Origin: Trypethelium eluteriae
Lineage: Eukaryota
NCBI GenBank assembly: GCA_051942245.1
Contig: JAVECL010000005.1
Location: 62,001-126,000, forward strand
Length of the DNA: 64,000 nucleotides
Direction: 5' to 3'
Both the position numbers and the translations under genes were made by a program. Under the pieces are notes generated by a model. It was not told the origin of the DNA. It was given only the letters and a program-made list of their open reading frames with translations, and searched no databases. This document shows, one piece after another, positions 23,740-55,554 of the stretch (the first letter of the stretch is position 1; the number at the start of each line of letters is the position of its first letter).

Positions 23740-24564
23740 AGTAACAGTGGTCCATGCAGAGCAAAATGAACCTTTAGTCCACTACGATATCTCCATGACG
23801 TCGCTAGATAGATGGACACCCCCGCATCGATTGTTGACCGGAATCTTTCCATTTACCGTAGGGCGGCGTAGGCGGCACTATCACCCTATGGTGCTTCTAT
23901 GTGGCCGTCTGACACCAGATACAAGAATTTCGTCAGGCAGGGGGGACATTTGCCAACTTGGAATAAAACGCGGTGAAGGTAGGTACGCACCAGACGCGTC
24001 GTGACCGTGATTGTGACTGCCGTTCCGAGCTTTTCTCTGGCCACGTCTCATCAATAAAAACCCCCCTATTTTACGAACTCAGTTTCCGGTCTGAGCAGCA
24101 CACTCTCTGCAAACACCCAACTCAATTCTGTGAAATCTTGGAACTGTATTAAATGCTGCTCTCGATTGTTGTTTGGCATCCGTGGAAACTACTCTTGGCG
24201 CCGATCTCTTGCCGAAAAGCGAAGTCTGTTACGTTGGCCGACAACAAAAACCAATGTTGATCCCTCTGTAGTCCTGAGAGATCCAACCTTGTTGTCTCGT
24301 TTTCTAGGCAATACGAGACTATACACACCGGCAAAAATGAACTTGCGCCCTTGACGTAGGCCAGGGGCTAGTAGAGCAGACTGGCTAATGTTATTCAGTT
24401 GTCCTGTATTTACTCTTGCAGTACAGTGTCAGTCCTGAAGTCGCTCAAGAATTTTGAGGATGGTAAGCTTCACCAAGGTCTGAAACCCTTCTATCATTTC
24501 ATCTTCATGTCCTTCGCTTGCCGGCCAAGCCTATACTTTCGCAGCTAATATTTCAATATTCATA

Positions 24565-25698
24565 ATGTTCTTTAATTACCTGGTCCTTATTGCTGCTTTC
24601 AATACAGTCGTCCTAGCAAAGTCATTTGCAACCCTCACAACTCATGCAAGGCCAGCGTCCCACATATCTCGTCGTACCGTACACGCAAGCAAGCCCACTT
24701 CACACCTTACCAATTCAACGGCAAATCATCCTAAAAGTACCCCAAAGCCTACTCCATCATGCGTGCTACAGAACGAAGACCCAGATCAGAACATCAATAC
24801 AAGATACTGCATTTGTGACGAGACCAAGACTCTCCCTTTGCTCACCTTGGCAGATTCCTCGGACGAATCATCGAGCTGTCACTATAAAGCTATCCCCACT
24901 CAGAAAAATGCCACGATCCATCCGACTACCACTGCCCTAGGCTCGATTCAGACCAATTCTAAGCTCTGCCAGATATGCTCACCAATCGGTCCATATGCAG
25001 ATTCTTGCACCAGCATGTCTAATTGCTTCCCTCAAACCCCCGAAGCCACCGTTCAAGTCGGCTCGTCACCAGTGCACGTCGGCACTCTCACCGGCGACAA
25101 GCTCTACAGCTCTATCTCCAACGCGATCGAAACCATCTGCCCGACCGTGTCACAGACCGAGTCCAAAACCAGCTGCGCCACCGATTCCGTCTCCATCGAC
25201 AATATCGACTACGTCTCCGGCGGCTTTCTCTCGAAAGGCAGCCTCGTGGTGAAGGTGGATAGCTCCGCCTACAACGAGACCTCCCTCCGTGACGCCATGA
25301 TCAGGTCGGCGGCGCTCACGGCGCAGCACTCGACCACTGGCAACAACTGCTACAGCCAGTCGTACACGGTCGAGGAGCTGATGCGCCTCGATCGCCGGGA
25401 CCACCCCTATCCAGTGCAGGAGAAGATGACCATGTGCAATGCGGCCTCGTTTGCGGGCGTGCAGTACTATTCCGAGTTCTGGCGAACGGCGCCGGAGCCC
25501 GGGAGTACGGATTACATTGATGCGTCGTGGGAGTTTGAGACAGGGCCGATGGACAATTTCGCGTGTGACTTTCTAGAGGAATTGATTAGCGCGCTGGGGA
25601 TTATCCAGCCGGAGTTTGCGGTCGGGGCCACAAGGCTGGCGAAGGCGGTAGATGCTGTTTGTGAGAAGGCAATGGAGCACGTAGATGGGAGCTCGTAG
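24565..25698 (+). CDS. Secreted Cys-rich protein of unknown function
   Basis: 377-aa intronless ORF with signal peptide MFFNYLVLIAAFNTVVLA, 14 Cys and dibasic RR sites. Confidence 0.8.
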   Translation: MFFNYLVLIAAFNTVVLAKSFATLTTHARPASHISRRTVHASKPTSHLTNSTANHPKSTPKPTPSCVLQNEDPDQNINTRYCICDETKTLPLLTLADSSDESSSCHYKAIPTQKNATIHPTTTALGSIQTNSKLCQICSPIGPYADSCTSMSNCFPQTPEATVQVGSSPVHVGTLTGDKLYSSISNAIETICPTVSQTESKTSCATDSVSIDNIDYVSGGFLSKGSLVVKVDSSAYNETSLRDAMIRSAALTAQHSTTGNNCYSQSYTVEELMRLDRRDHPYPVQEKMTMCNAASFAGVQYYSEFWRTAPEPGSTDYIDASWEFETGPMDNFACDFLEELISALGIIQPEFAVGATRLAKAVDAVCEKAMEHVDGSS

Positions 25699-25855
25699 TG
25701 ATCCATGTGGTGGAACCTTAGTATCTGTCTGTACTCCATGGACGAATCTCCGGTGCGGCGGATGTTTGGATTGGATCTTCCCTGTAGCACGGAGTCTATT
25801 TACAAATCAATTATATAACTCTACGGAGGCGAGAAAACTTTTGTCCTTCCACATC

Positions 25856-27007
25856 TTACGGAGGATTCGTGTTACTGAAGCTTGTTCCTACAAACACAGC
25901 CTGGACACTGGCCAATGCCAGACTTGCCGCAAAAATCTCTGCATGCCGTGCAGAGGTGAAAATGGACAGACAGAGACTGAAAACCGCCGAGAACAATACA
26001 ATGAAGATTATTCGCCAGGTAGGGGAGGTGATGAAATAAAGTGCGACTATCGAACAAGTGGGAAGAAGTGAAGACAGCAGTACTACGATCGCCTTGACGA
26101 TACGGCTAAGAACTGTATCACTGTAGCTATAGTTACCCATGTCATCATCGGGTTCCTATTAGACGGAAGGTCAGTGTGCCTGGCAAAACTGAAATCGTAG
26201 ACCGGATAGCATGAGGCTGGGAGAGAATCGTAGTATAGAAAGTACCGACCCGGAATCGTTTGTATATACTGTGAAATGCCTCAAGCAGCGGCCCAGCCAA
26301 GAACCGTGTAAAGGCATCTCGATTGTGGAAGCCTCCTGACAGAAGGACCAAGTCTTTCTGCAGTTGCCTACCTTGGTCATCAACCTCCCAAATAGTGTCC
26401 TCCGGATGATCGAGCCATCGACCACCCGATTCTTCGCGATGGACAAAATTGTAGAGTTCCTTAACCGACAAATCGTCGGCCTTCGGTAACTCGTACAGTC
26501 GCTTTTGCTGGAGTAGAGTATAATCTGAGAGCTTTTCCTTAGTAGCAGGTAGAGACGCACAAGCAAACTCAACGGGCGATACTTACTGTACTTAGACAGC
26601 GCGTCATCCAATTCTTTCACTTTGGCCCACAGCAAAGCGCCATTGGAGCCTGCTGGCGCAGCTTTGAGTTCTCCAACGCGGTGCCGTAGATGCTTTTCGT
26701 CCTGATACAGCTCCTCCAAATGGTTCAGCTCATGCTCGAGCCAAGTAATTTCCGCCTGGCGATAAAGCAGTATTCGCGCATTGGCTGAGACAAATCGCCG
26801 ATAGATGGCGGCGCCGACTGTGTTACCCATGTGGGTTGCAAGGCGTGGGTAGCCATGTTGGGCGAAAGGATCGACAGAAAGTACTCGGCGAAACTTGAAT
26901 CTCTGGGTTCCGGGGTTGGGACTGTTCTCATCTGATGTTTGTTGTTGCGACGCGGCTGGCCTATTGGAACTTGCGAAGTCAGGGCCTGATGTTGCGGCTT
27001 CGCTCAT
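25856..27007 (-). CDS. DUF6594-type protein with three C-terminal TM helices, 3 exons (331 aa)
   Basis: GYPRLATHMG..AIYRRFVSANARILLYRQAEITWLEHEL is the family N-terminal signature. Introns 26525-26586 and 26156-26249 give a clean frame. The C-terminus is LLPTCSIVALY..WRIIFIVLFSAVFSLCL..AEIFAASLALASVQAVFV. Confidence 0.85.
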
Positions 27008-27778
27008 GGCAGCCAATTCCAACGACTCATATCATACCTCTGCCGTGTGATGAACAATTGGGAGCCGGGCTGAAGGCGATAATGAATCAAGACACACCGC
27101 CAAGAGAGGGAGAGCCGCAAGGCGTCTGGCACTAAGTACTCCGTACGCCTACAATTTCTTTGTAGACGACATTTGCGTGTTGAGTGGTTGGCTGAGAGGT
27201 TGGCGAGGCGAGGGGAGGCGATTGGCTGAATCCCAGCTAGATCCCAACTAGATCGCAATTAGCCCCGGGAGGTGCATCATGGAGCATGCATACACCCCCG
27301 GCGCAATACATCATCGCTCCATAGCTGGCTGCAGGCCTGTGGCACAGTTCAGCTCGTGCCACAATAACCATCATAGCCACCCCTTCGATTAATAGACCAT
27401 ATCGCGTACTCCATAAGGAATACTGTTGGTGCATGCGGAGTACCTCCACAGTACCTGACCCGCGAGGGCCAATATTACGCCATTTTACCAATTTCATGCT
27501 TAGCTAGTAATCCTCATTTTTTAAAAACGCCGTATCAGACCTGGCTGTCTCACTGGAGGCCCCCGAGAGCTGTCCGAGACTGGAGGTATATACCAGCGAG
27601 AATTTCAGCTGCACCAGCTTGTACCGTGCGAGATAGCATTGTCTTACGAAAGACATCAAGTATTATGACCAAGATGCTGCACTCCGAGTCTTAGCTTCGC
27701 GTTCGACAATATCTGCGCTGAGGATTCCAGTGGTCTTTCTAACTCTCCATCGCGAATTGGCATTATTAATCAACGGTG

Positions 27779-28765
27779 ATGGCTTTCGAACATACGAACC
27801 AAGATACCCTTCCTGCAAAGCGAGGTCTTGATGATCTGGATCCAAACGCTCCATCTCCCCAGCCAAAGCGCATGGAGCAGCTAGAGAGTACACCGCCAGA
27901 CGAGGAAGTTGGACCGCTGGATCTGCCAGCCGAGGATGACACACCTGAGGTCTTCGATGTTCCCGAAGGAGGTCTAGCTGAGGACGAGCAGTATGGAATT
28001 CTCGACGACCCCGAAGAAGACCTGGTCATCGAAGATGAGGAGTACGAGGTCTTCAGTGTTCCTAGAGGAGATCCAAAATCACGCGATACCACCGAAATTC
28101 CGATTATTGCAACAAGACTACCAGATGAAAACCCTGTGACGTTATGGGCAACCATGGATACCGGCGCCAACTTCAACATTATCGCCAGGAAGACGGTCGA
28201 GCGCCTTGGTCGTCTCTCCGAGCTAAAAGACTATCAGGACGAGGCTCAAGAAATGGGTAGCAACACGTATCCAATCACCCATACGATAATCCTGGATCTC
28301 TTAGCTGGACGAACCAATCGCTCGCTCGCTGCAGTTCAGTTCTTCGTCCTGATGGAGGGTGAGATTGATTCAGACGTAGATGGGAATCCTGACGTATTAC
28401 TAGGATGGCCCTTGCTGAGGAAGGAACACATGGTGATGGTCGATGTGGAGTTTGCGATCGAGGCCAACCCAGAATACGAGGTCATTGCCAAGAAGGTAAA
28501 GGACGAAGGGCCTCTGCTAGAAAGAAAAAGGGTATACATGACCTTCAGCGGGGGCCATGCGGGTCCCTCTCCTTATGCCGCACGCGGGAGAGCTGTACTC
28601 CAGCACGGTGGTCGCGTGCCGGGCCGGGCCCAGCAGGGCATTCTGAAGCAGGGTGGACATAATCCAAGCGGATACAACCCGAGTAGATATAACCAAGCCA
28701 GACAAAACCAAGCCAGACACAACCAAGGTAGATCCAGGCAAGGCTTCGGGTTGGGATTTCTGTAG
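27779..28765 (+). CDS. Stand-alone retropepsin-like (clan AA) aspartic protease with acidic N-terminus and N/Q/G/R-rich C-terminal pseudo-repeats
   Basis: Intronless ORF with catalytic ATMDTGANFNII (GAT at 28157) and downstream DVLLGWPLL motif. No gag/RT/integrase is nearby. Confidence 0.8.
   Translation: MAFEHTNQDTLPAKRGLDDLDPNAPSPQPKRMEQLESTPPDEEVGPLDLPAEDDTPEVFDVPEGGLAEDEQYGILDDPEEDLVIEDEEYEVFSVPRGDPKSRDTTEIPIIATRLPDENPVTLWATMDTGANFNIIARKTVERLGRLSELKDYQDEAQEMGSNTYPITHTIILDLLAGRTNRSLAAVQFFVLMEGEIDSDVDGNPDVLLGWPLLRKEHMVMVDVEFAIEANPEYEVIAKKVKDEGPLLERKRVYMTFSGGHAGPSPYAARGRAVLQHGGRVPGRAQQGILKQGGHNPSGYNPSRYNQARQNQARHNQGRSRQGFGLGFL
28652..28741 (+). repeat. Six degenerate 15-bp coding tandem repeats (GGHNP SGYNP SRYNQ ARQNQ ARHNQ GRSRQ)
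   Basis: ggtggacataatcca agcggatacaacccg agtagatataaccaa gccagacaaaaccaa gccagacacaaccaa ggtagatccaggcaa. Confidence 0.8.
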
Positions 28766-30005
28766 TTGATATGAAAGACGAGTCCTGCAGTTTCACCAGT
28801 ACTGGAGCGAGGGAATCATTCCATCACATCAGCTTTTTTTACTTGCCTTTCACATAATTTACCATCGTTGTCCTTCCGTCTCTACCAAACAAGACTCATC
28901 GGGCATCCCCGTACCGCGGCGATCGTGCTTCGCATCTTCATAGGTCTTCTTCCAAATGAAGCACTCAGCGAGTAAAATACTTCAAGGCAGCTTTGACCGA
29001 CGCATCTTGGTTGGCGAGGCACCTATATCGGATTCGCACAACAAAGACGGCTGGCTGGTGCGTGTCGCAGTCTTCAGTGAAGCCAGCATGATGTCGTCGT
29101 TATGCGTCTTCGCGAATGATACGAACATCCAGCAGCGTGCTTGGAGCAAAACGTTCGTCACTAAAGTTCCGAAAGCGCTGTTGAGGCTGCTCGTCCTTAC
29201 TACCATCAATCGTGCGACTTTGGGGCTGGCATTAGCAACTGCGGATTCACATTGAGAAGATATACCGACATGCAGATGGAGTTAGTTCCGCAAGGGCAGA
29301 TTAACAGGTCTGAATATGTGAGAGAAATAGTGAAATCTATCTCTGACTAGTTGAAAGATGATGATGAGAGAGAGTCTGGGAACGATAAAGAGAGGACAGA
29401 ATTTAATGCCCAATTAAAAATTGAAGGCTCAAATGGTGGATGCGATAAACATGAAAATATTGGCTCTTCTGAGTAGGAGATGTCATGGGCAAACTTCGGC
29501 TCAAGGATGTCCAATGATCAATGTGTGTGACAAGCCTTGTATTGCTTTTATCCTTACTGATAACATTTTGCAGGGAAGTCATGAGTGCGTCGGTGTCGGT
29601 GCAGCGCTCGTCCCTCAGGCATGCCCTAGAGGAATCAATCGAGTCCCACGAAGGTGTACCACAAGAATTCTTCCGGACCAGTGAACTGATGTTGTGCGCA
29701 CGTCGACTTGAGTTTATCTCTGCAAGTCGCGCAATTCGCTAAATAGATGGGTTGTGGACCGTATCGGGGCTGCTCCTCTGCGTCTCTCAGCCACACTGTT
29801 GTTGTAATTAAGGGGTGGTGCTGGGGCTGAGCAACTTCTCTTGAGCCATGAAAGTCACCTCCTTGTTTCACAATCTTCAGCTATTGCTGCATATTCGGAA
29901 GGACCATTTAAACAGCGAGCATGATGCCTCTTCTAAGATTTCCTCGAGCCTTTATGACAAAACCTTCATTCTGTAGGCCGGATTGATCAGAACCAATCCA
30001 AGAAA

Positions 30006-31714
30006 ATGCGTCGCTTTACCATGCGCTCAAGAACAGGATGCAAAACTTGCAAGTACGCGCTTTTTGATCAATAAATCGACATAAGAATTTTCTGACTGTT
30101 TTAAGAATTCGAAGAGTGAAATGCGATGAAGCAAAGCCTGCCTGCAAAAGGTGCACCAATACGGGTAGGCGTTGCGATGGTTATGATCAAGTTCAGTCAG
30201 CCAGATACTCGCTAAATGCTGGAGCTGCGAAATCAAGCCGAGCGAGTTCAATATCGCCAACACAAGCCTCTACAGATGCGCCTTTGCTGTTGAGGAGCCC
30301 TAGATTTGGGGGTGATCTGGATCGAGATGAGAAACGTGCCTTGGCTTTCTATCAGGAATGCACCTCAAGCAAAACCACAGAAGTCGTCAATGATGATTTT
30401 TGGGGCACCATTGTCTTACAATTCAGTCTACTGGAACCCGCAATCAGACATGGTCTCCTCGCCTTGAGCGCCTTGCACGAGCAATCTGTATCAGGAGGTT
30501 CAGGAGCTAAGGGGCTGAGAAAGAGCGACCGGTTTGCTTTCAGACAGTACAGTCTCGCCATTGTGGGGGCCAAGAATCTCGTCGGGCGCGTCAACTCTGC
30601 AGCGAATTCGACGGAATTTTTGAAAGTGCTGGTCATGAGCGCGATTCTAACGTGCTACGACAATATTGTTGGGAATTACGAGAGAGCGCAGACACATCTC
30701 CGGTCTGCCATGAAGCTCATCCGATATAAGAACCCAGCAGGATTCTGCAGCAGCTCAACTTCGACTCAAGGAGATGCTTCTGTGCATCGTATAAATGAGA
30801 TGATGGCGGTGAAGAACACACTCTTGCAATTGGATTTCCAAGCAATGACCTTCTCCGACGCCTCCGCGCCTTACCCTCACCTTATCCAAGGACAAGACGA
30901 CATCGAGGACCTGCCCGAAGAATTTCAAGACCAGAACAGCGCACCTGAAGCTCTCTCGTCAATCATCTCCCTCTTTCGCTTCATGTTCCACATTTCCGTC
31001 CAAGCCAAGGCAACTCCAATCTCTCCATCCAACCTCGAACATCGGAAAATTACTCTTACAGCCCGTTTCACCCGCTGGGCAACCTTCTACGCTCCCCTCC
31101 TCACGCCTATACCTCGGACTCCTCCGTCGGACATAGAGAATGCAAACGCCATCCTCTTAGTTCAAATCTACTATCACACCTCCATAACTCTCCTCAACCC
31201 AATCTTCTCCCCGTCCGAATATTCCTGGGATACCCATATCAAGACGTTCATGACAGTACTTGCCCTGTCCGAGCGGCTCGTTGCTTCCACATTCCCGTCC
31301 TCCAGCCCGATCGTTCAGACGGAGAGCTCAAAGTCCGCTTGGAATCCTTTCACCTTTAATATCGGCCTCACCATCCCACTTTTCCTCCTCGCATTCCGCT
31401 GCCGGCATCCATTGCTGCGTCGTCGTGCCGTGGAGCTGCTGAGTGTGCGTGACCGTCGTGAGGGCATGTGGAGGAGTCGGGCTGCAGCGGAGGTCGCAAA
31501 GCGGATCATTGCTCTGGAGGAGGAGGGGATAGAGAATATGGTGAAAAGCGAGAGGGATATCGGAGAGGAGAAGAGGGTGCGAGCAGTATTTACGAAGGTT
31601 GTGTTGGACGAAGAGGAGACGGGAGGGGAAGGGAAGGTGTGGGTGAGGGCCTTGAAGATGCCTTGGGGAGAGGAAGGGGAGTGCGTTGGGCAAGAGTTTT
31701 TAGTCTGGATCTAG
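30006..31714 (+). CDS. Zn(II)2Cys6 transcription factor
   Basis: RSRTGCKTCK|intron ~30053-30106|IRRVKCDEAKPACKRCTNTGRRCDGY, with the fungal TF C-terminal motif CRHPLLRRRAVELL..RREGMW. The start is uncertain and an upstream exon is possible. Confidence 0.9.
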
Positions 31715-31957: not shown

Positions 31958-34183
31958 CTAGTTCGGTGGGTCGATTACAAATAAATCCTGAATAACCGCC
32001 GTCCCGTTCATTAGCGCCGTGACTTGGTTCTCGGTACAGGTGGTGTTGTAGGACCAAAAGTAACACCGGAAAGGTATTGGGTCTGGCAGCGTATTCTTGA
32101 TCCAGAAGCTAGACTGGGGCCCCTCCGATCTATAGATCGAACCATTTCGTTGTGGAAGGGTCGAAACTTTGCCAGTTGCAATGTCCTTGTTGAAGAGAGC
32201 GCGGTCGAAGATGCGAGAGACCGTCTCTGGTTGGTATGCTTGTACTATGGAAAAAGGCACATCAGTACCTCGGATATAGACCTCGCGCGAAGGTTCATGA
32301 ACAGGACGGACTTACCAGTATGGCCGGATTCAAAGACACGAGAGAATGAGAAGTTCCCGTATTGCCTCACGACGCCACCAGTATATGTCTCATTTGTGGT
32401 GATATTCTCGTACCCACTGGCACGGAAATTTGTGGCATCAGGATAGCTAGCATTCAAGCTAATAGCCTCACCTCCAAGCCCTGGTCTCTATTAGCGGAAT
32501 TTCAGGACTTGTTGCAGCAAGGAGGAAAGCCTCACAATTGCACCTGTAATCCCTATCGCCATATATCATGGAAACTTTGATGCCTTGGCTTAGTAGAAAG
32601 TTTAGATCAGAAATGCTTCTGCGCTGGGTGTCACCAGTGCCGAACTCAAAATTGTCCGCACTGGCAATGGAGTCTTGCGTGTAGTTGACTTTGACTCCCA
32701 GTGCTTCCTGTACCCAAGGCTGATTAAGGTATCCGACAAAATATTCGAAGGGATATTGCTCAGGACTCGGCAGAGAAATGTCGAATGCGCTTAGCTATTG
32801 AACATGAGCTGATATACCGACGTTGTATAGAAACAATACTAACGCCCGAAAGTTCCAGGAACGCCCCTTGGACAAACGCAAAGCAATACTCAAAAGCGTC
32901 GACGCAAAGTTGGTTCACGGTAGAATTGAGTCCCAGTTCATCGGGATCACTAATAGCACCGAGTTCACGGCATTGGTTGGTCAAGTCAACGCATCCTCCC
33001 GGCTTCGTGAAATTGTTGACAGCATCCTCGAAGACTGTCTGATTGATACCCTGTAAACCATATGTATTGTTGTACGCGTAAATCGGGTAGGACTCCCCAA
33101 TGACGACAACGTCAAGGCAAGCGTTCGTAAGTCCAATAGCATCTAAAGGTAGAATGGTGGCGTTGGCGACTTCTAGAGAGTTGTTGGCGATCTTCAGATT
33201 CTGCTGTTCAATAAAGGCGCCATAGGCGGGCACATAGTAACCACCGTACTAAAAAGGTATCAGCCGCTGAACAAGAGGATGAAAGTGGAGTAGCATACCG
33301 AGTTTCCCCAAATGTTAATCTTTTCATTTTTTGTTTTGTATTCGGGAAATCTTCACTGCATTTAGCATCAAGTATATTATATGATCGATATTATTAAGGC
33401 ACTTACTCCTGAAACCACAGCTGAGCAAAGTGCCAAATAGCACGAGCACCCTGGCCGCAGGAGAGTGCAGTATTATTCGGATTCTGACTGCCAAAGTTGC
33501 CGAATATTGTGGTCTGGTTTTGGTTCACTGACATATTCGACTGTTCGAGCGATTCGATGGGTGTGATGTTTCCCGAGAGGAGATCAAGGCTGCCATTTGT
33601 GACTGTATCGTAGGAGAATCCCACCATGTTTGGCTGATCAATGTACAGAACATTGGAGTGTGCATTCCAAGACCATGGATTCAGGACAGTGGTGTTGGAG
33701 TCATCTTGTACGACACAAGGACCAGCCTCGCCATCTAGTGCAGCAGACACGGACGAGTCGCCTGGACCGCCGGCAAAGTATATAGTGGTAGGAGCGTCGA
33801 GAGGGCTGTTACGAGCTTCAAAGTACCAGAAGAATGTGTTTAGATCATACGGTTGTCCCGGGATTTGTGAATCAGCGATGATATCACTTGGCAAGTGGAC
33901 GTATCCGCTGAAGGATCTGACTCCGGGTGTGGTTTCACAGACATGAGTCTAGCAGAAGTATAGGTGTTAGCGTAGTAATAGGAAGGACGCTCGCAATCCT
34001 GCTTACTTGTTTGTAGGATATTGAAGCACCTGGAAATAATTGAGACGGAAAGGTCATTGTGTCATTCTGCGGTATTGCTGGAGTGGGAGAGAACGGTGCA
34101 GTATGAGGGCTTGGTGAATGAAAGTATGGAGAAACTGAAGCAGCAATAGTGGTAAGCTCTGTGATGCTATGATGGAAACCCAT
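31958..34183 (-). CDS. Serine carboxypeptidase, family S10 (carboxypeptidase S1-like), multi-exon
   Basis: CETTPGVRSFSGYVHLP, TFFWYFEARN, GGPG, NPWSWN..LYIDQP..GFSY, nucleophile WGNS|YGGYY, YGDRDYRCN (Asp) and VFESGH (His). Confidence 0.92.
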
Positions 34184-35509: not shown

Positions 35510-37280
35510 ATGTCTGCTGCAGCGCAAGCAGAAACAATCCTCAAGGACGTCAATGTCCTAGGATCGCTCAACGATCAGACCAGAAAGATTTTGAACAAAG
35601 ATGCTCTTGTCTTCCTCGCTCTCCTCCACCGTACCTTCAATGGCACTCGAAAAGCTCTCCTACAGCGTCGCATGATCCGACAGGCTGAGCTCGATAAGGG
35701 CAATACTCCCGACTTCCTGCCAGAAACGAGACACATTCGCGAAAATGATGCATGGAGGGGTGCCCCACCAGCACCAGGTCTAGTAGACAGGCGCGTGGAA
35801 ATTACAGGGCCCACAGATAAGAAGATGGTTGTCAATGCTCTGAACTCGGATGTTTGGACCTATATGGCAGATTTCGAAGGTACGGACGGCAGTTGGACGG
35901 AGACAGAGGGAGACAATTGGAGACTGACTTGAGATCCAGACTCCAATGCACCAACATGGGACAACATGATCAATGGCCAGCTCAACCTTTATGATGCCAT
36001 TCGTAAGCAGGTAGACTTTAAGCAGGGCGAAAAAGAATACAAGCTACGAACTGATCGCGTCCTCCCCACACTCATCTGCCGCGCCCGCGGCTGGCATTTG
36101 GAAGAAAAACACCTGACCATTGATGGCGAGCCTATCTCCGGCAGCTTATTCGACTTCGGTCTATACTTCTTCCACAATGCAAGGAAACTGGTCGAGACTG
36201 GGACTGGCCCTTATTTCTATCTGCCGAAGATGGAGTCGCACCTAGAAGCGCGTCTCTGGAACGACGTTTTCAACCTTGCCCAGGACTACGTTGGCATGCC
36301 ACGAGGTACAATCCGCGGTACTGTCCTCATCGAAACCATCCTTGCGGCCTTTGAAATGGACGAGATCATCTATGAGTTGCGCGACCATAGTTCAGGCCTG
36401 AACTGCGGCCGCTGGGACTACATCTTCAGCGTCATCAAGCGGTTCCGCCAGAACCCGGCCTTCTGCTTACCAGACCGCAGCGCCGTTACCATGACAGTGC
36501 CCTTCATGGACGCCTACGTCCGACTCCTCATCCAGACGTGCCACCGACGCGGCGTGCACGCCATGGGTGGTATGGCGGCGCAGATCCCGATCAAGACCGA
36601 CCCAGCGGCCAACGACGCCGCCATGTCCTCGGTACGCTCCGACAAGCTGCGTGAGGTGCGCGCGGGTCACGACGGCACCTGGGTTGCACATCCTGCGCTC
36701 GCAGCGATTGCGACGTCCGTCTTCAATGAGCACATGCCAACGCCGAACCAGCTGTTTGTCCGACGCGAGGATGTGCACGTCACCGCGAATGACTTGTTGA
36801 ATATGAACAACCCGGGAAAGATCACGGAAGATGGTATCCGGAAGAACCTGAACATTGGATTGGGCTATATGGAGGGCTGGCTCCGGGGCGTCGGCTGCGT
36901 GCCGATCAACTTCCTTATGGAAGATGCGGCTACGGCGGAAGTGAGTCGCAGTCAGCTCTGGCAGTGGTGTCGACATGGGGTGAGCACAAGTGAGGAGCAA
37001 AAGGTCGATAAGGCGTACGCGCTGAAGTTATTGAGAGAGCAAACGCAAGAGTTGGAGAGCAAGGCACCAAAGGGCAACAAGTACGCGCTTGCAGCACGGT
37101 ACTTCGAGGGACAAGTGACTGGAGAGGACTATGCCGAATTCCTGACATCGTGAGTGCAGCCTTGATTCGGCTACTTTTCCCATCCATTAGCTCGTAAGGA
37201 TCACAGCTGACCATATCGCCAGATTACTGTACAACGAGGTGACGACTGTCGGTCCCGCGGCACCGGCCTCGAAGCTGTAA
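35510..37280 (+). CDS. acuE: Malate synthase (glyoxysomal), 3 exons, PTS1 -SKL
   Basis: [54 protein letters not shown] and [18 protein letters not shown]. Introns at 35880-35939 and 37150-37222. The last exon ends PASKL*. Confidence 0.97.
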
Positions 37281-41878: not shown

Positions 41879-42413
41879 TCGCGACATGAATGCTAGGTAG
41901 CAGACTACTGATGTGACTGCGGCCCAATGGCTGTTTCATCTGGGTAGATCAATCTCAAAAATACCTCGATAAACGATTTTCCAAACAGGTGCAATGTGTG
42001 CTGCGTGTATGTCTCCAAGTTGATAGCTGCTGTAGCCAATTGCACGCGAGTGTTTTGAAACCAGAAAGATGAGGATAAGGCTGAGTGGGCGTGGTGGTGG
42101 CGGCTGCAGCCAGAAAATCCGGCAGAATTAAAAATGTCCCAAGATCAACCCACGCTGCCACGCTGCCACCTTTTTAACACCACTCTCCCCTCCTTTTCCT
42201 TTCCTTTCTGTTCGCAACGCCTCGGCGTTCGAGGCTGCTTTTTCTAATATCCTAGTTCCACTCCGTATAGACTTCTCTCTCTATTTGCTCCAGGGGTTCC
42301 CCAGTGCGGCGCCGTCTTGACGGCTGACACTTAGCTGGACGAAAACCAGTAAACTTCATACCCCAGGGAGAGCAAAACTTTCGTGCTGAGCAGACTTGAC
42401 GCGGTCCTCCAAA

Positions 42414-45400
42414 ATGCCGCATCACGAATCACCTCCTATGCAACCTACGATGGTCGCCAAATCCAACGGCGACTCGCCTGCGCCTAGTCAAGCTGACGTC
42501 GCTTCAATACTAGACACAATTTTCAACAGCAAGACGTCGCAGGCATCGCTCGATGCTGCTTATGCCCTCACTACAACTTTGTCGCAATCGGTCGGCTTCC
42601 GTGGACTGAAGGGATACGGCTTACTAGAAGACATTAAAAAAGCTGCGGCAGATAAGAAGAACCTAGGGCGCAGGGAAGGATCCATGTTCGCCCTCGGCGC
42701 TCTGTTCGAACGAATGCCTCTACATCAACCTACTAGCGAAGTCGTCTTCCTAGCTCAGGAAGAAAGTCTGGTACCTCTCGCTCTCGACGCACTTGCGGAT
42801 AAAGGGTCTTCGGTCAAAGAGTCCGCACAGTATGCACTCGATGCGCTCTTCAACAATCTCAAGCCTGAAGCCACGATATTCGCCTTACTGCCAGTCTTGA
42901 TGCAATACCTTGGCAAAAGGACTGGTAAATGGCAAGGTACCGTCGGAGCCATGGAACTTATTGGGAGAATGGCCGAAAAAGCCAAAATGGGTATGGGAAG
43001 CAAAGAAGAGGAGCAGCTGAAGGACATACTCAGAGATGCCATGGGTAAGCGGCTGGAAGGTCTGATACCAATAGTCGAAGCCGGTATGCATGATCTGAAA
43101 TCTGAGGTGAGTTTCACAATAACCAGGAAGAACGTTAGAAAACGTATCCCAACTTTAATCGTGTTAGGTTGCGAAGCAATCTTTGAAGACAATGAACGGA
43201 CTGACTACCTTGCTCGACAACGATGACGTTGCCCCAAGGATACCACTCCTCGTCAAATCCATGGAAAATCCTTCCACCGAGGCCCTCCAAAAGGCCATTC
43301 ACGCATTGTCTCAGACAACATTCGTTGCGGTCGTCACGTCTCCTGTTCTTGCCCTACTTACTCCTTTGCTCGAGAGATCCCTCAACAGTCCATCAACTGC
43401 TCAAGAGGTACTACGACAGACGACAGTGGTGGTTGAGAACTTAACAAAGCTGGTGCATGATCCAATCGAAGCCAGAGCTTTCCTGCCAAAGCTCAAGCCC
43501 GGGGTCAAAAAGGTCAAAGATGGAGCTTCACTCCCTGAAGTTCGCGAGATTGGTAGGCGGGCTCTCGATGTTATCAATAAGGCCATGGGCGATCGTGATG
43601 GAGAGGTCGCTCGCGGTGTGATTGCGCGCACTACTCCTGAAGACGTGCTCGCTATTCTAGATCCGGAGATCAAGAAGAACGGGGGTCTCCTTGACTATCT
43701 TGGGGACGCTAAAGTGGGCCAATTGACAAAGAAGCTCTGCGCCGAGATGGTTGCAGAGGATGTCAATCAAAGGCAGCTTGACCGCATCGTTCCATGTATA
43801 GGTCCCTATTTGCAACCTCTCATGACTGATGGTGCCGCCTCAGTCATCGCTGAATCCATCAAAGCCTTTTACGTCGAAGAAGACAATCGCAAATTTGGCG
43901 CGCCTATTAAAGAAGACGACGGCGAGACTGAGATTGTTAATGCGAATTTCTCATTGGGATACGGAGGCATGCTCCTTCTTTCTCACACGAATCTGCGCCT
44001 ACTGAAGGGTCATCGTTATGGTCTTTGCGGAAGAAATGGAGCCGGCAAATCCACGTTGATGCGCAGCATAGCCAACAACAAGCTGGAAGGCTTTCCGCCA
44101 CCGGAGGAAGTAAAGTCATGTTTTGTTGAGCACAATCAGGGTGAAGATGCAGACCTCAGTATCCTGGAATTTACGGTCAAGGATCCTGCTCTACAAGCAG
44201 AAGGTAAAGATCGGATATCCAAAGTCTTGGCAGAGTTTGGCTTCACGTCTGGCCCAGAAGGAAGACAATCTCAGAAAGTTGGATCACTCTCAGGTGGATG
44301 GAAAATGAAACTGGCTCTAGCCAGAGCAATGCTGATGCGCGCTGATGTCTTGCTGCTTGATGAACCGACGAACCACCTGGACGTTGCGAACGTCAAATGG
44401 CTGGAAGAGTACCTGAAGAAACACACCGAAATCACCAGTCTCATTGTCTCTCACGACTCCGGATTTTTGGATGACGTCTGCACCGACATCTACCACTACG
44501 AAAGCAAAAAGCTAGTCTGCTACAAAGGCAATCTTGCAGCCTTTGTCAAGATTAAGCCGGAAGCCAAATCCTATTATACGCTCTCTGACGCAAATGCTCA
44601 GTTCAAATTCCCACCCCCAGGTATCCTCTCTGGCGTGAAGTCAAATACGCGTTCCATCCTTCGCATGACCAACTGCACTTTCACGTACCCCGGCTCATCC
44701 AAGCCGTCACTGTACGACGTCTCCTGTCAGCTTACGCTCTCCTCCCGGGTCGCCATCATCGGGGGCAATGGCGCTGGCAAATCGACCCTTATCAAAATCC
44801 TTACGGGCGAAATGGTCCCGCAACAAGGCAAAGTCGAAAAGCACCCTAATCTCCGTATAGGCTACATTAAGCAACATGCCTTAGAGCACGTCGAAATGCA
44901 CATGGAGAAGACGCCGAATCAATACCTCCAATGGCGATACGCACACGGCGACGACCGAGAAGTCTTCCTCAAGCAGACGCGCATGCTCACAGACGAAGAC
45001 CGTGCACAGATGGACAAGTTCGTCGACCTCGGTGACGGAAAGGGCGAGCGACAGATCGAGGCGCTCGTTGGCCGGCAAAAATACCAGAAGACGTTCCAGT
45101 ACGAGGTCAAATGGCGGCACCAGCTTCCGAAGCACAACACGCAAATCTCACGCGAGACGCTGCTCAAGCTCGGCTTCTACAAGCTGGTGCAGGAGTTCGA
45201 CGACCACGAGGCGTCGCGCGAGGGCCTGGGCTTCCGCATCTTGGAGCCTCGTGTCATCGCACAGCATTTCGCGGATGTCGGGCTCGACCCGGAGATTGCG
45301 AATCACAACCAGATCTCCGGCTTATCCGGCGGGCAAAAGGTCAAGGTGGTACTTGCCGGCGCCATGTGGAACAACCCGCATCTTCTTGTGTTGGATGAGC

Positions 45401-45911
45401 CGACGAATTTCTTGGATCGTGATTCCCTGGGTGGTCTTGCGGTTGCGATCCGAGACTATAAGGGAGGTGTGGTGATGATTTCACATAATGAGGAGTTTGT
45501 TGGGGCGCTGTGTCCTGAGCAGTGGCACGTAGCAGATGGGCGACTCACGCACAAGGGCCATTTGGCGGTGTCACTGGATCGGTTCGAAGATTCTTCTAGA
45601 CCCGGATCAAGTGTCGCAAGCAGCAACGTAAGCAGTGCAGCGGGCAGTGCGAATGCAAGTGCAGCGAATAGCGATGCTGAAGGCGGAGAGCTCAAGTTTA
45701 GGGCGAAGAAAAAGAAGAAAATGACGAGAGCACAGCAGAAGGAAAGGGAGGTAAGGAGAAGACTGAGGCATATCGAATGGTTGAACAGTCCCAAAGGTGC
45801 GTTTGGCCTACATCTTCGCCTATGTGCCCTTGAGACGTCAATGGATTTTAACGATGCTAATGTGGGTTGACAGGTACGCCGCATCCACCAGACACTGATG
45901 ACGAGGCATGA
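42414..45911 (+). CDS. NEW1: eEF3-like ABC-F ATPase NEW1/Elf1 (HEAT + 2 ABC + chromodomain), 3 exons
   Basis: Walker A motifs GRNGAGKST and GGNGAGKST, signatures LSGGWK and LSGGQK, LDEPTN twice, chromo insert, and NEW1-type C-terminus RRLRHIEWLNSPKG|TPHPPDTDDEA. Introns at ~43107-43168 and 45797-45873. Confidence 0.92.
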
Positions 45912-54091: not shown

Positions 54092-55554
54092 ATGCTGGTT
54101 TCATTAACTGTCGGCAAGGTGGATGCTGGCGTCGCCGTGCTTTTGACAGAGGATAAGCGCCTTGTAAGCCTCCCATCTGCCGTCCTTGAACATCAAACCT
54201 GTCGCCTCTTGCATCCTATACAGCTTGTTGTACAAAAAGATCTTCATACTTTCCATGTTGCTTGTTAGACGGGAAAATTTCTCGAGGAGCAGCGTACAAA
54301 AATTCATTGTTCTCGCTACTTGAGCTTCCATTACCGACTGCTGAAGCTTGAGACCCAATTAACCCACTCCAGATAGAATTCCCTTCCATCCTTCTCCCTC
54401 CCGACATCACCTCCGGCTCTATCGTCGATATCACTGTCGCTCGTAACTTCTCCTCAGAATCCAGCGCCTCTCTTGCCTTCTCCCGCCTGCAATCCGACAT
54501 CTACTCCACCTTCGGCGTCACTTCCCCAAAGCCCCCTACCCTCCGCTGTCGCAATGCAACCCAAACCAGCATCGTGCTCGAATGGGACCCAATCGAGCTT
54601 GCCACCTCCGAACTCCGTAGTCTCAGTCTGTACCGCAATGGCAGCAAGGCCGGCAGCATTCCACGGCCACTAGAGCAACACAGCACGAAGATTAGTGGGC
54701 TGCCGCTGGACACCGAGTATACGTTTCATTTGGTATTAAGAACATCGGCGGGGACGTACGCGTCGGAAAAGCTAGTAGTACATACGCATAAGATGACAGA
54801 TTTATCTGGTATTACGGTAACGCCAGGAGTAATGCCTTCGCAGCTGAAAGAAAGTCTACAAGCGACGGTGGATAGAATTGGTGCAAAGATGATTGATACC
54901 GTACGGATAGATACGACGCACTTTGTGTGCACAGACGGCCGCGGCCGAGAGTGGGAGCGCGCGGTGGAGATGAATGTGCCTGTTGTTGTGCCAGACTGGA
55001 TCAAGGGCTGCGAACGGGAAGGTCGGCTTGTGGGTGTAAGAGGATACTACCTAAATGCAGATCCGAGATTGCGGCAGGTTGGGGCAGGCGTGGGCGTGCA
55101 GCAGACTCAGCAGCAGCAACCTCAGGAGCAGCAAGTGGCGACAAGACAGGCGGAAGGGCGACCAGAGCCACAGAGTCCGCTGGCGACGCCCAGTACACAG
55201 GTAATACCACCAACACCAGAGCAAGGAAGAGACAGAGAGGAAGAGAAGACAAATGGAGAGGAGAAGCCTCCACCTCCACCGCCGAAGTTCGAAGAGGATG
55301 AGGAGGATGCGGAGCCTCAGGCGAAAACTGGACATGACAAGGCAAATGGCTCGGCTGAGAAGGGCAGAGCTGAGGGTACAGAGGAGAGCACGGAGGATAG
55401 TGATGATGATGACAGGATAGGTGAGAAGGGTGTTGAGGCTGGAGAAGCGTCGAAACTAGATAGTGAGTTACCCGTGCGAGGGAAGCCACTCGAAGACGCA
55501 GATCCTTCGTCGGAGGATGAGGGAGCAGGGAATTACGAGGATGTTGCGCTCTAA
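54092..55554 (+). CDS. CHS5: Chitin biosynthesis/exomer protein Chs5 (FN3 + BRCT, acidic tail)
   Basis: MLVSLTVGKVDAGVAVLLTEDKRL|intron 54164-54372|IEFPSILLP. The FN3 region has LEWDPI..LYRNG and the BRCT region has TTHFVCT..VVVPDWIKGCE. Confidence 0.95.

Follow-up and report, generated by a model that had tools for sequence, protein, structure and literature searches.

A conserved head-to-head gene pair of a retropepsin-fold protein and a DUF6594 membrane protein in Dothideomycete-type fungi

In the lichen-forming fungus Trypethelium eluteriae a gene for a putative protease and a gene for a membrane protein diverge from one short intergenic region, which raises the question of whether the two proteins belong to one system and, if so, what the one does to the other. 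The genes lie in a stretch of 64,000 nucleotides (contig JAVECL010000005.1 of assembly GCA_051942245.1, positions 62,001 to 126,000), here called the window, in which all coordinates are counted. One product belongs to the family DUF6594 (PF20237) and carries three predicted C-terminal transmembrane (TM) helices; the other is a predicted soluble protein of retropepsin fold, referred to below as the protease. We hold the two genes to be functionally linked with good confidence: they very likely work together, because the pairing persists in distant fungi whose surrounding genes differ. Comparison of the sequences indicates that the pair is a real, previously undescribed two-gene module of Dothideomycete-type fungi.

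The start codons, at 27007 (-) and 27779 (+), diverge with 771 bp in between, which confirms the head-to-head arrangement around a shared region of ~770 bp described in an earlier, sequence-only reading of this DNA. Both proteins have identical or nearly identical counterparts among the hypothetical proteins of two lichen-forming Dothideomycetes, Viridothelium virens and T. eluteriae. The product of the protease open reading frame (ORF) is identical to the public protein P0076 and differs by one residue from P0001 of V. virens, and the spliced DUF6594 product of 331 aa equals the V. virens protein P0078 letter for letter.

Relatives of the pair were found in metagenomes. A scan with the seven closest members of the protease family gave 14 loci, in which a DUF6594 partner was sought by tblastn. 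A DUF6594 homologue immediately upstream of the protease homologue, and encoded on the other strand, was present in 10 loci (L001, L002, L003, L006, L007, L008, L009, L010, L012 and L013), with one copy per locus. The other four (L004, L005, L011 and L014) hold at most 842 nt before the match, too short to judge the partner; every metagenome locus with enough upstream DNA has a head-to-head DUF6594 partner. On dereplication L002, L003 and L008 proved to be one sequence (99-99.9 % identical), which together with L001, L004, L006 and L007 makes up a clade in which four or five sequences differ at species level, counted as one synteny block because a downstream DUF4336-like gene is common to them. 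L009 to L014 form one group, 95-97 % identical, from five assemblies. These two metagenome groups, Trypetheliaceae and Saccharata represent four deep lineages. The V. virens proteins have consecutive accessions (KAF2237833 and KAF2237834), and those of Trypethelium subeluteriae adjacent locus tags (Q9165_004255 for DUF6594, Q9165_004256 for the protease). In Saccharata proteae (Botryosphaeriales) the two proteins, KAF2090985 and KAF2090986, come from the same 2.63-Mb scaffold, and this numbering was read as adjacency because the same pattern reflects true adjacency in V. virens. The sequence-only reading had made its proposal depend on conserved adjacency, and the head-to-head arrangement is kept in every testable relative.

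The surroundings of the pair differ between lineages. When the 64-kb window was compared by tblastx with loci of 13-20 kb (L008, L012, L009, L002 and L013), nothing beyond the two genes matched, and likewise only the two genes matched between L008 and L012. According to Pfam, L008 carries RRF, RAI16-like and Lipase_3 genes on one side and DUF4336, SRP40 and Sec3 genes on the other, and in L012 the pair lies between Chalcone_2 and unknown ORFs; in the window the flanks are a secreted Ser/Thr-rich protein and a Zn2Cys6 transcription factor. The pair has stayed together while its surroundings were reshuffled across the three deep lineages compared (window, L008 and L012). Adjacency and orientation are kept where the other neighbours differ, and by this operational definition the two genes are a conserved functional gene pair.

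The two proteins have also diverged together. Their pairwise identities correlate with r = 0.98 (six lineages, 15 pairs), as joint vertical inheritance would predict, a correlation that shared species history alone would also give. The ratio of non-synonymous to synonymous substitution rates (dN/dS) came to 0.21 in the protease and to 0.06-0.12 in the exon-1 block of DUF6594 for those pairs in which dS is defined; in comparisons among sub-lineages within the metagenome clade dS was saturated. These ratios indicate that both genes are under purifying selection. The sequence-only reading had proposed tests for co-phylogeny and balancing selection; the correlation agrees with co-phylogeny, and purifying selection and no marked hyper-polymorphism were seen. 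Neither low dN/dS nor joint, vertical-looking descent points to an allorecognition locus that evolves fast.

The protease has no hydrophobic N-terminus (KD19 hydropathy maximum 0.98), and its first 100 residues have a net charge of -25. AlphaFold2 (AF2), run with a 44-member family alignment, predicted a well-defined core between long disordered N- and C-terminal extensions, where the block values of the predicted local distance difference test (pLDDT) lay between 78 and 98 for residues 101-240 and at 68 for residues 241-250. When this core was compared with the PDB by Foldseek, 36 matches were obtained at E <= 1e-3, all of retropepsin type among the matches listed. The best match was the RVP domain of Ddi1/DDI2 (4rgh_A, E 1e-5), followed by a Rickettsia retropepsin and the proteases of equine infectious anaemia virus (EIAV), feline immunodeficiency virus (FIV), Rous sarcoma virus (RSV) and HIV-2. 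The neighbours of the core in the ESM Atlas were the RVP_2 and gag-asp_proteas families, and a search of PDB sequences with a profile of three protease sequences gave 0 matches at E <= 10. The model suggests that the ORF encodes a divergent cellular retropepsin-fold protein in which catalysis is probably retained. Orthology to Ddi1 was considered and rejected, as the UBL and UBA domains are absent (Pfam at E <= 1 returned two weak protease families alone). The proteases of Trypetheliaceae have an extra G/R/Q/N-rich, RGG-like C-terminal tail of ~70 aa (window 28555-28765, +), absent in the other aligned members.

The family to which the protease belongs is small: when 1.84 billion representative proteins were searched with its profile, 53 clusters were obtained at E <= 1e-3, of which 13 reached E <= 1e-30. 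Among 55 family sequences, the context of the motif D-[TS]-G-[ASG] could be recognised in 40, and 36 of these retain the motif. All named members are annotated as 'hypothetical protein', and five of their locus tags gave no mention in the searched full-text literature. The family is also present in plant-associated Dothideomycetes and in one Eurotiomycete, and for this reason the module does not appear to be peculiar to lichen fungi. A second subfamily, with a YEWIRLPK-type N-terminal motif, occurs in Fulvia fulva (CLAFUR5_06723), Meristemomyces frigidus (LTR85_011446), Salinomyces thailandicus (B0A50_00258) and Phaeomoniella chlamydospora (UCRPC4_g05679); its alignment (A5) found no relative in genome contigs. 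In the N-terminal extension of 12 of the 23 full-length family members a K[KR]x[KR] motif was seen, resembling a classical nuclear localisation signal, against 1.8 expected from shuffles. The protease of the window has degenerate versions alone (PAKRGL and PKRMEQ; homologous part 27779-28075).

DUF6594 is a large Pfam family. It is a fungal membrane-protein family without assigned function, and the terms 'DUF6594' and 'PF20237' had no mention in 8.4 million full texts; a broader look at the literature on fungal gene pairs of a retropepsin-like and a membrane protein brought up nothing relevant among the best 10 of 505 papers. A member of the DUF6594 family is also encoded in Teratosphaeria nubilosa (EJ03DRAFT_323714). 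The profile, with a cut-off of 30 bits, matched exon 1 with 53.6 bits (E 3.8e-14, profile positions 1-85) and exon 3 with 65.4 bits (E 9.6e-18, positions 163-237), so the check by hidden Markov model (HMM) proposed earlier came out clearly for this gene. The gene described in the sequence-only reading is real; the two GT-AG introns that it contains had gone unmentioned. The position of intron 1, after ...RY/KY, is implied in L002 as well, where the ORF breaks after ALERYSQ. Public models in two metagenome-assembled Trypethelium genomes are truncated, namely P0004 (266 aa) and P0077 (179 aa, partial); P0004 is without all three TM helices because intron 2 was missed and read through into a stop. 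The V. virens model P0078 is the correct gene model.

The AF2 model of the DUF6594 protein is mediocre (pLDDT 63.8; predicted template-modelling score 0.31). It has an antiparallel helical hairpin (residues 75-100 and 122-151) and small beta elements, then TM helices at 245-273, 277-299 and 303-326, tightly packed and in agreement with hydropathy (KD19 maximum 2.64). Residues 1-53 have a pLDDT below 50. The soluble helical domain, the three C-terminal TM helices and the disordered N-terminal ~45 aa of the sequence-only reading are all recovered in these predictions. Foldseek found no match to the model in the PDB at E <= 1e-3, and VIA-align in wide mode gave generic antiparallel helical hairpins with Z <= 9.1, below the level that is meaningful for helical proteins. 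DUF6594 clusters were the sole return from the Atlas. By eye, in alignment A4, a basic patch followed by Ser/Thr precedes the conserved HGYPRLA helix in the partner DUF6594 proteins (window ~26870-26900, -; residues ~37-46), with the variants FRRVLS, LKRILS, PRRESTL and PRRDSTL. The patch is reminiscent of an RRxS kinase site or, possibly, of a processing site.

What the pair does can be put forward more tentatively. The mechanism that we favour, as a serious possibility rather than a probable one, is regulated proteolysis, in which the protease would cleave the neighbouring DUF6594 membrane protein. A soluble, non-secreted protease of retropepsin fold would be transcribed divergently from the DUF6594 gene through a promoter region of ~0.35-0.8 kb and would presumably form a homodimer, as do others of its fold. 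Its partner would expose a cytosolic helical-hairpin domain ahead of the three C-terminal TM helices. The cut might fall in the cytosolic N-terminal part, either in the disordered first ~50 residues or in a linker before the TM bundle, and contact between the proteins could end in an altered activity of the membrane protein or in release of its soluble domain. We favour this mechanism because the protease has kept its catalytic motif, because it is soluble and the partner would expose to it a large, N-terminally disordered domain in the cytosol, because a small protease family is tied, wherever testable, to one DUF6594 subfamily, and because in fungi there is a precedent, the gasdermins, for clustering of genes for a protease and its membrane substrate. 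The small size of the protease family against the large DUF6594 family fits a dedicated accessory enzyme of one DUF6594 subfamily. A complex prediction with two protease cores and residues 1-240 of the DUF6594 protein gave a score of 0.01, in a run without controls or family alignments, and carries no weight either for or against binding.

Several observations weigh against a protease that is dedicated to its neighbour. The protease ORF matched Asp_protease_2 with 18.2 bits (E 0.0041; threshold 24.3) and gag-asp_proteas with 15.2 bits (E 0.034; threshold 28.2), below both thresholds, and 21 of the 44 aligned family members match Asp_protease_2 at E <= 0.01, the best at 2.8e-5. The assignment as a protease stands despite these sub-threshold matches because AF2 and Foldseek give a confident retropepsin fold. 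For the stand-alone, non-secreted aspartic protease with DTGA and LLG motifs of the sequence-only reading, the motifs, the absence of a hydrophobic N-terminus and the fold were recovered, and the Pfam threshold was not reached. Adjacency in Saccharata derives from consecutive accession numbers and not from DNA, and adjacency as a whole was tested only among the nearest subfamily to the window protein, the sole locus of the second subfamily (L005) having 522 nt ahead of its start codon. In the lineage L009-L014 the genes look damaged: the protease is frameshifted in L012, L013 and L014 and has an in-frame stop in L010, the C-terminal half of DUF6594 is split over two frames in L009, and the N-terminal half of DUF6594 was undetected by Pfam throughout the lineage. 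The apparent damage may reflect decay of the pair, allelic presence/absence variation or assembly error. Intergenic regions of seven loci had no shared 7- to 10-mers at the thresholds used, as in shuffles. Finally, divergent neighbours may stay together for cis-regulatory reasons alone.

Among the alternatives to regulated proteolysis, the one that fares best places both proteins in the same pathway without making them enzyme and substrate. The DUF6594 protein would then be a membrane receptor, anchor or regulator by which the soluble protease is brought to a membrane or kept under control there, and the protease would cut other proteins or itself. Adjacency, co-divergence and purifying selection fit this arrangement equally well. 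Disordered extensions around the core are likewise found in retroviral-like proteases that process themselves, ASPRV1 among them, as described in the passages of PMC11402058 drawn on here, and the K[KR]x[KR] motif in about half of the full-length N-terminal extensions may point to targeting signals that belong to the protease itself. That basic motif is degenerate in the protease of the window, however, and nothing points to another substrate; we regard this arrangement as possible, if somewhat doubtful.

It is less easy to reconcile the data with a purely cis-regulatory linkage, by which a shared bidirectional promoter or chromatin domain would hold together two genes without common biochemical function. 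In all cases the genes stand head-to-head across a short gap of comparable length (342-814 bp in the related loci), which fits such a linkage, and gene-order studies report that conserved gene neighbours are often transcriptionally linked (passages of PMC2871058). However, all other neighbours were reshuffled between the deep lineages with the pair left intact, the partner is present for every family member with testable DNA, and no conserved promoter element was found. A promoter or chromatin effect would also not explain why a protease family of 53 clusters stands beside one DUF6594 subfamily in every tested case. We consider this explanation unlikely.

The sequence-only reading had gone further and proposed a two-component allorecognition or cell-death system, in which an induced protease turns the DUF6594 protein into a membrane-damaging executioner, as with gasdermins in the HET-Q1/HET-Q2 system. 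A protease gene is indeed clustered with a gene for a membrane-active-looking protein, and the clustering is conserved. About 80 % of fungal gasdermin genes lie beside genes for S8 or CHAT proteases, according to the passages of Clave et al. (2022, PMC8851545) drawn on here. The precedent holds as regards a neighbouring protease; it does not extend to the protease type, since the proteases described there are of the S8 or CHAT type, often fused to sensor repeats, and not retropepsins, and the protease of the pair is without a sensor domain. Neither the pair nor the 23 scanned of the 44 large ORFs in the window contained a domain of the gasdermin, HeLo, HET or NOD-like receptor (NLR) type. The haplotypes of L009-L014 differ by frameshifts or stops in either gene, and L009 and L012 have diverged by substitutions to 4.3 % in the protease segment, as compared with 0.6-2.4 % in DUF6594, which could mean a polymorphism of presence/absence type; the protease value is, however, within the range of 0-5.3 % in the rest of the same loci. 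Low dN/dS, vertical-looking co-divergence (r = 0.98) and one copy per locus also speak against cell death, and the DUF6594 protein has ordinary TM helices, so that cleavage would not be needed for membrane entry. Of the two-component module, the functional pairing is upheld by the conserved adjacency and the unshared flanks, and the specific part, allorecognition or cell death, is not; we judge it improbable.

The boldest form of the cell-death proposal, in which a domesticated retropepsin is the dedicated activator of DUF6594 in ascomycetes and cleavage makes a membrane-permeabilising or signalling executioner, is in our view a long shot. If true, it would add a third type of fungal protease/executioner pair to those of S8 and CHAT proteases with gasdermins, and would provide a first function for the DUF6594 family.

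That the protease ORF is a relic of a long terminal repeat (LTR) retrotransposon beside the DUF6594 gene by chance is effectively refuted: the weak gag-asp_proteas match and the retrotransposon protease clusters among the Atlas neighbours stand against an intact, single-copy ORF under apparent purifying selection, with conserved extensions of non-retroelement type and a conserved neighbour across deep lineages, and, as the sequence-only reading had noted of its context, against the absence of LTR-like repeats in 24000-30500 and of gag, reverse transcriptase (RT) or integrase in the 23 scanned of 44 window ORFs of 150 aa or more.

The features of the pair are collected in Table 1. On the DUF6594 side it is followed at 24565-25698 (+) by a gene for a Ser/Thr/Cys-rich protein of 377 aa, whose N-terminus resembles a signal peptide and which belongs to no Pfam family; this gene is not beside the pair in other lineages. 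A Zn2Cys6/Fungal_trans_2 factor is encoded at 30068-31714 (+), 1.3 kb downstream of the protease; its place next to the pair is not kept in other loci. The remainder of the window has a housekeeping character, with an S10 carboxypeptidase fragment, malate synthase, elongation factor 3 and a Chs5-like protein. In the metagenome loci, fragments of a Ty3-type integrase, chromodomain and RNase H were seen at L009:663-2450, ~7.5 kb from the pair, and an ORF two genes upstream in L012 (6252-6743) had a weak, sub-threshold match to PigL_N, a HeLo-like N-terminal domain (E 4e-4).

Table 1 Coordinates of the gene pair and of other features; positions refer to the window unless a locus is given
Feature	Position	Strand	Basis
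DUF6594 gene, 3 exons, 331 aa	25856..27007	-	splice model; Pfam DUF6594; product equals public protein P0078
DUF6594 exons	27007-26587, 26524-26250, 26155-25856 (stop included)	-	splice model
DUF6594 intron 1, 62 nt, GTAAGT...CAG	26525..26586	-	GT-AG; splice model
DUF6594 intron 2, 94 nt, GTCGGT...TAG	26156..26249	-	GT-AG; Saccharata homologue P0005 (324 aa) aligns across splice
Codons of the three C-terminal TM helices (residues ~245-326)	25874..26119	-	hydropathy and AF2 helices
Divergent intergenic region, 771 bp, presumed bidirectional promoter	27008..27778	.	between the two ATGs
Protease ORF, intronless, 328 aa	27779..28765	+	acidic disordered N-terminal ~100 aa, retropepsin-like core, G/R/Q/N-rich tail
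Retropepsin-like core, residues 100-250	28076..28528	+	AF2 block pLDDT, Foldseek, Atlas neighbours
Catalytic-type motif D127-T-G-A130	28157..28168	+	sequence; family conservation
L207-L-G209, retropepsin 'ILG' region	28397..28405	+	sequence; G209 nearly invariant
Housekeeping ORFs	33403-33948, 35933-37153, 42390-45870, 54352-55554		Pfam scan
Protease of the L012 pair	L012:9983-10536		
DUF6594 of the L012 pair	L012:8574-9251		

What is new here is a conserved cluster that joins a protease gene to a membrane-protein gene, both from uncharacterised families, the protease family lying below Pfam thresholds. The head-to-head pairing gives a first testable functional hypothesis for both families, as enzyme and partner. 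If the neighbour is processed, we would have here a cellular retropepsin devoted to a membrane protein, and the logic of the gasdermin clusters, a protease encoded beside its membrane substrate, would extend to unrelated families.

Among known systems, the clusters of gasdermin or HET-Q2-like genes, as presented in the passages of Clave et al. (2022) drawn on here, share with the pair a protease gene beside the gene of a membrane-acting protein, a long-conserved association and, in the working model, a neighbour that is the substrate. They differ in that the pair has a retropepsin and not an S8 or CHAT protease, and a DUF6594 protein with constitutive TM helices and not a gasdermin; its protease is without an NLR or repeat sensor, no idiomorphic or polymorphic structure was seen at the loci compared, and cell death is not indicated. 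With the DUF6594 family at large the left-hand gene is connected as a clear member, and the partners in L008 and L012 match it too; the conserved protease partner, in contrast, concerns one subfamily only. For ASPRV1 (SASPase) we know of no conserved membrane-protein neighbour. It is likened to the protease by layout alone, being a host-gene protein with a single retropepsin domain inside a longer precursor with flanking extensions, and unlike it is a mammalian, skin-specific protease (passages of PMC11402058). The proteases of LTR retrotransposons (gag-asp_proteas, RVP_2) have the fold, the DTGA and ILG-type motifs and the weak HMM matches in common with the protease of the pair, whose gene is, unlike theirs, accompanied by no LTRs in the region searched and by no gag, RT or integrase in the ORFs scanned, and is single-copy, apparently vertically inherited and selected.

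The closest structural relatives are the RVP domains of Ddi1/DDI2, which gave the top matches (4rgh_A, 5yq8, 7d66, 4z2z, 3s8i and 2i1a) with target-normalised template-modelling scores (TM-scores) of 0.52-0.67 and which are likewise cellular, non-retroelement retropepsins. Sequence identity to them is 18-22 %, and the protease of the pair differs in its lack of UBL and UBA domains, in its other extensions and in its narrow taxonomic range, Ddi1 being pan-eukaryotic. DDI2 cleaves NRF1, a factor anchored in the membrane of the endoplasmic reticulum, and so provides a precedent for the action of a retropepsin on a membrane-tethered protein.

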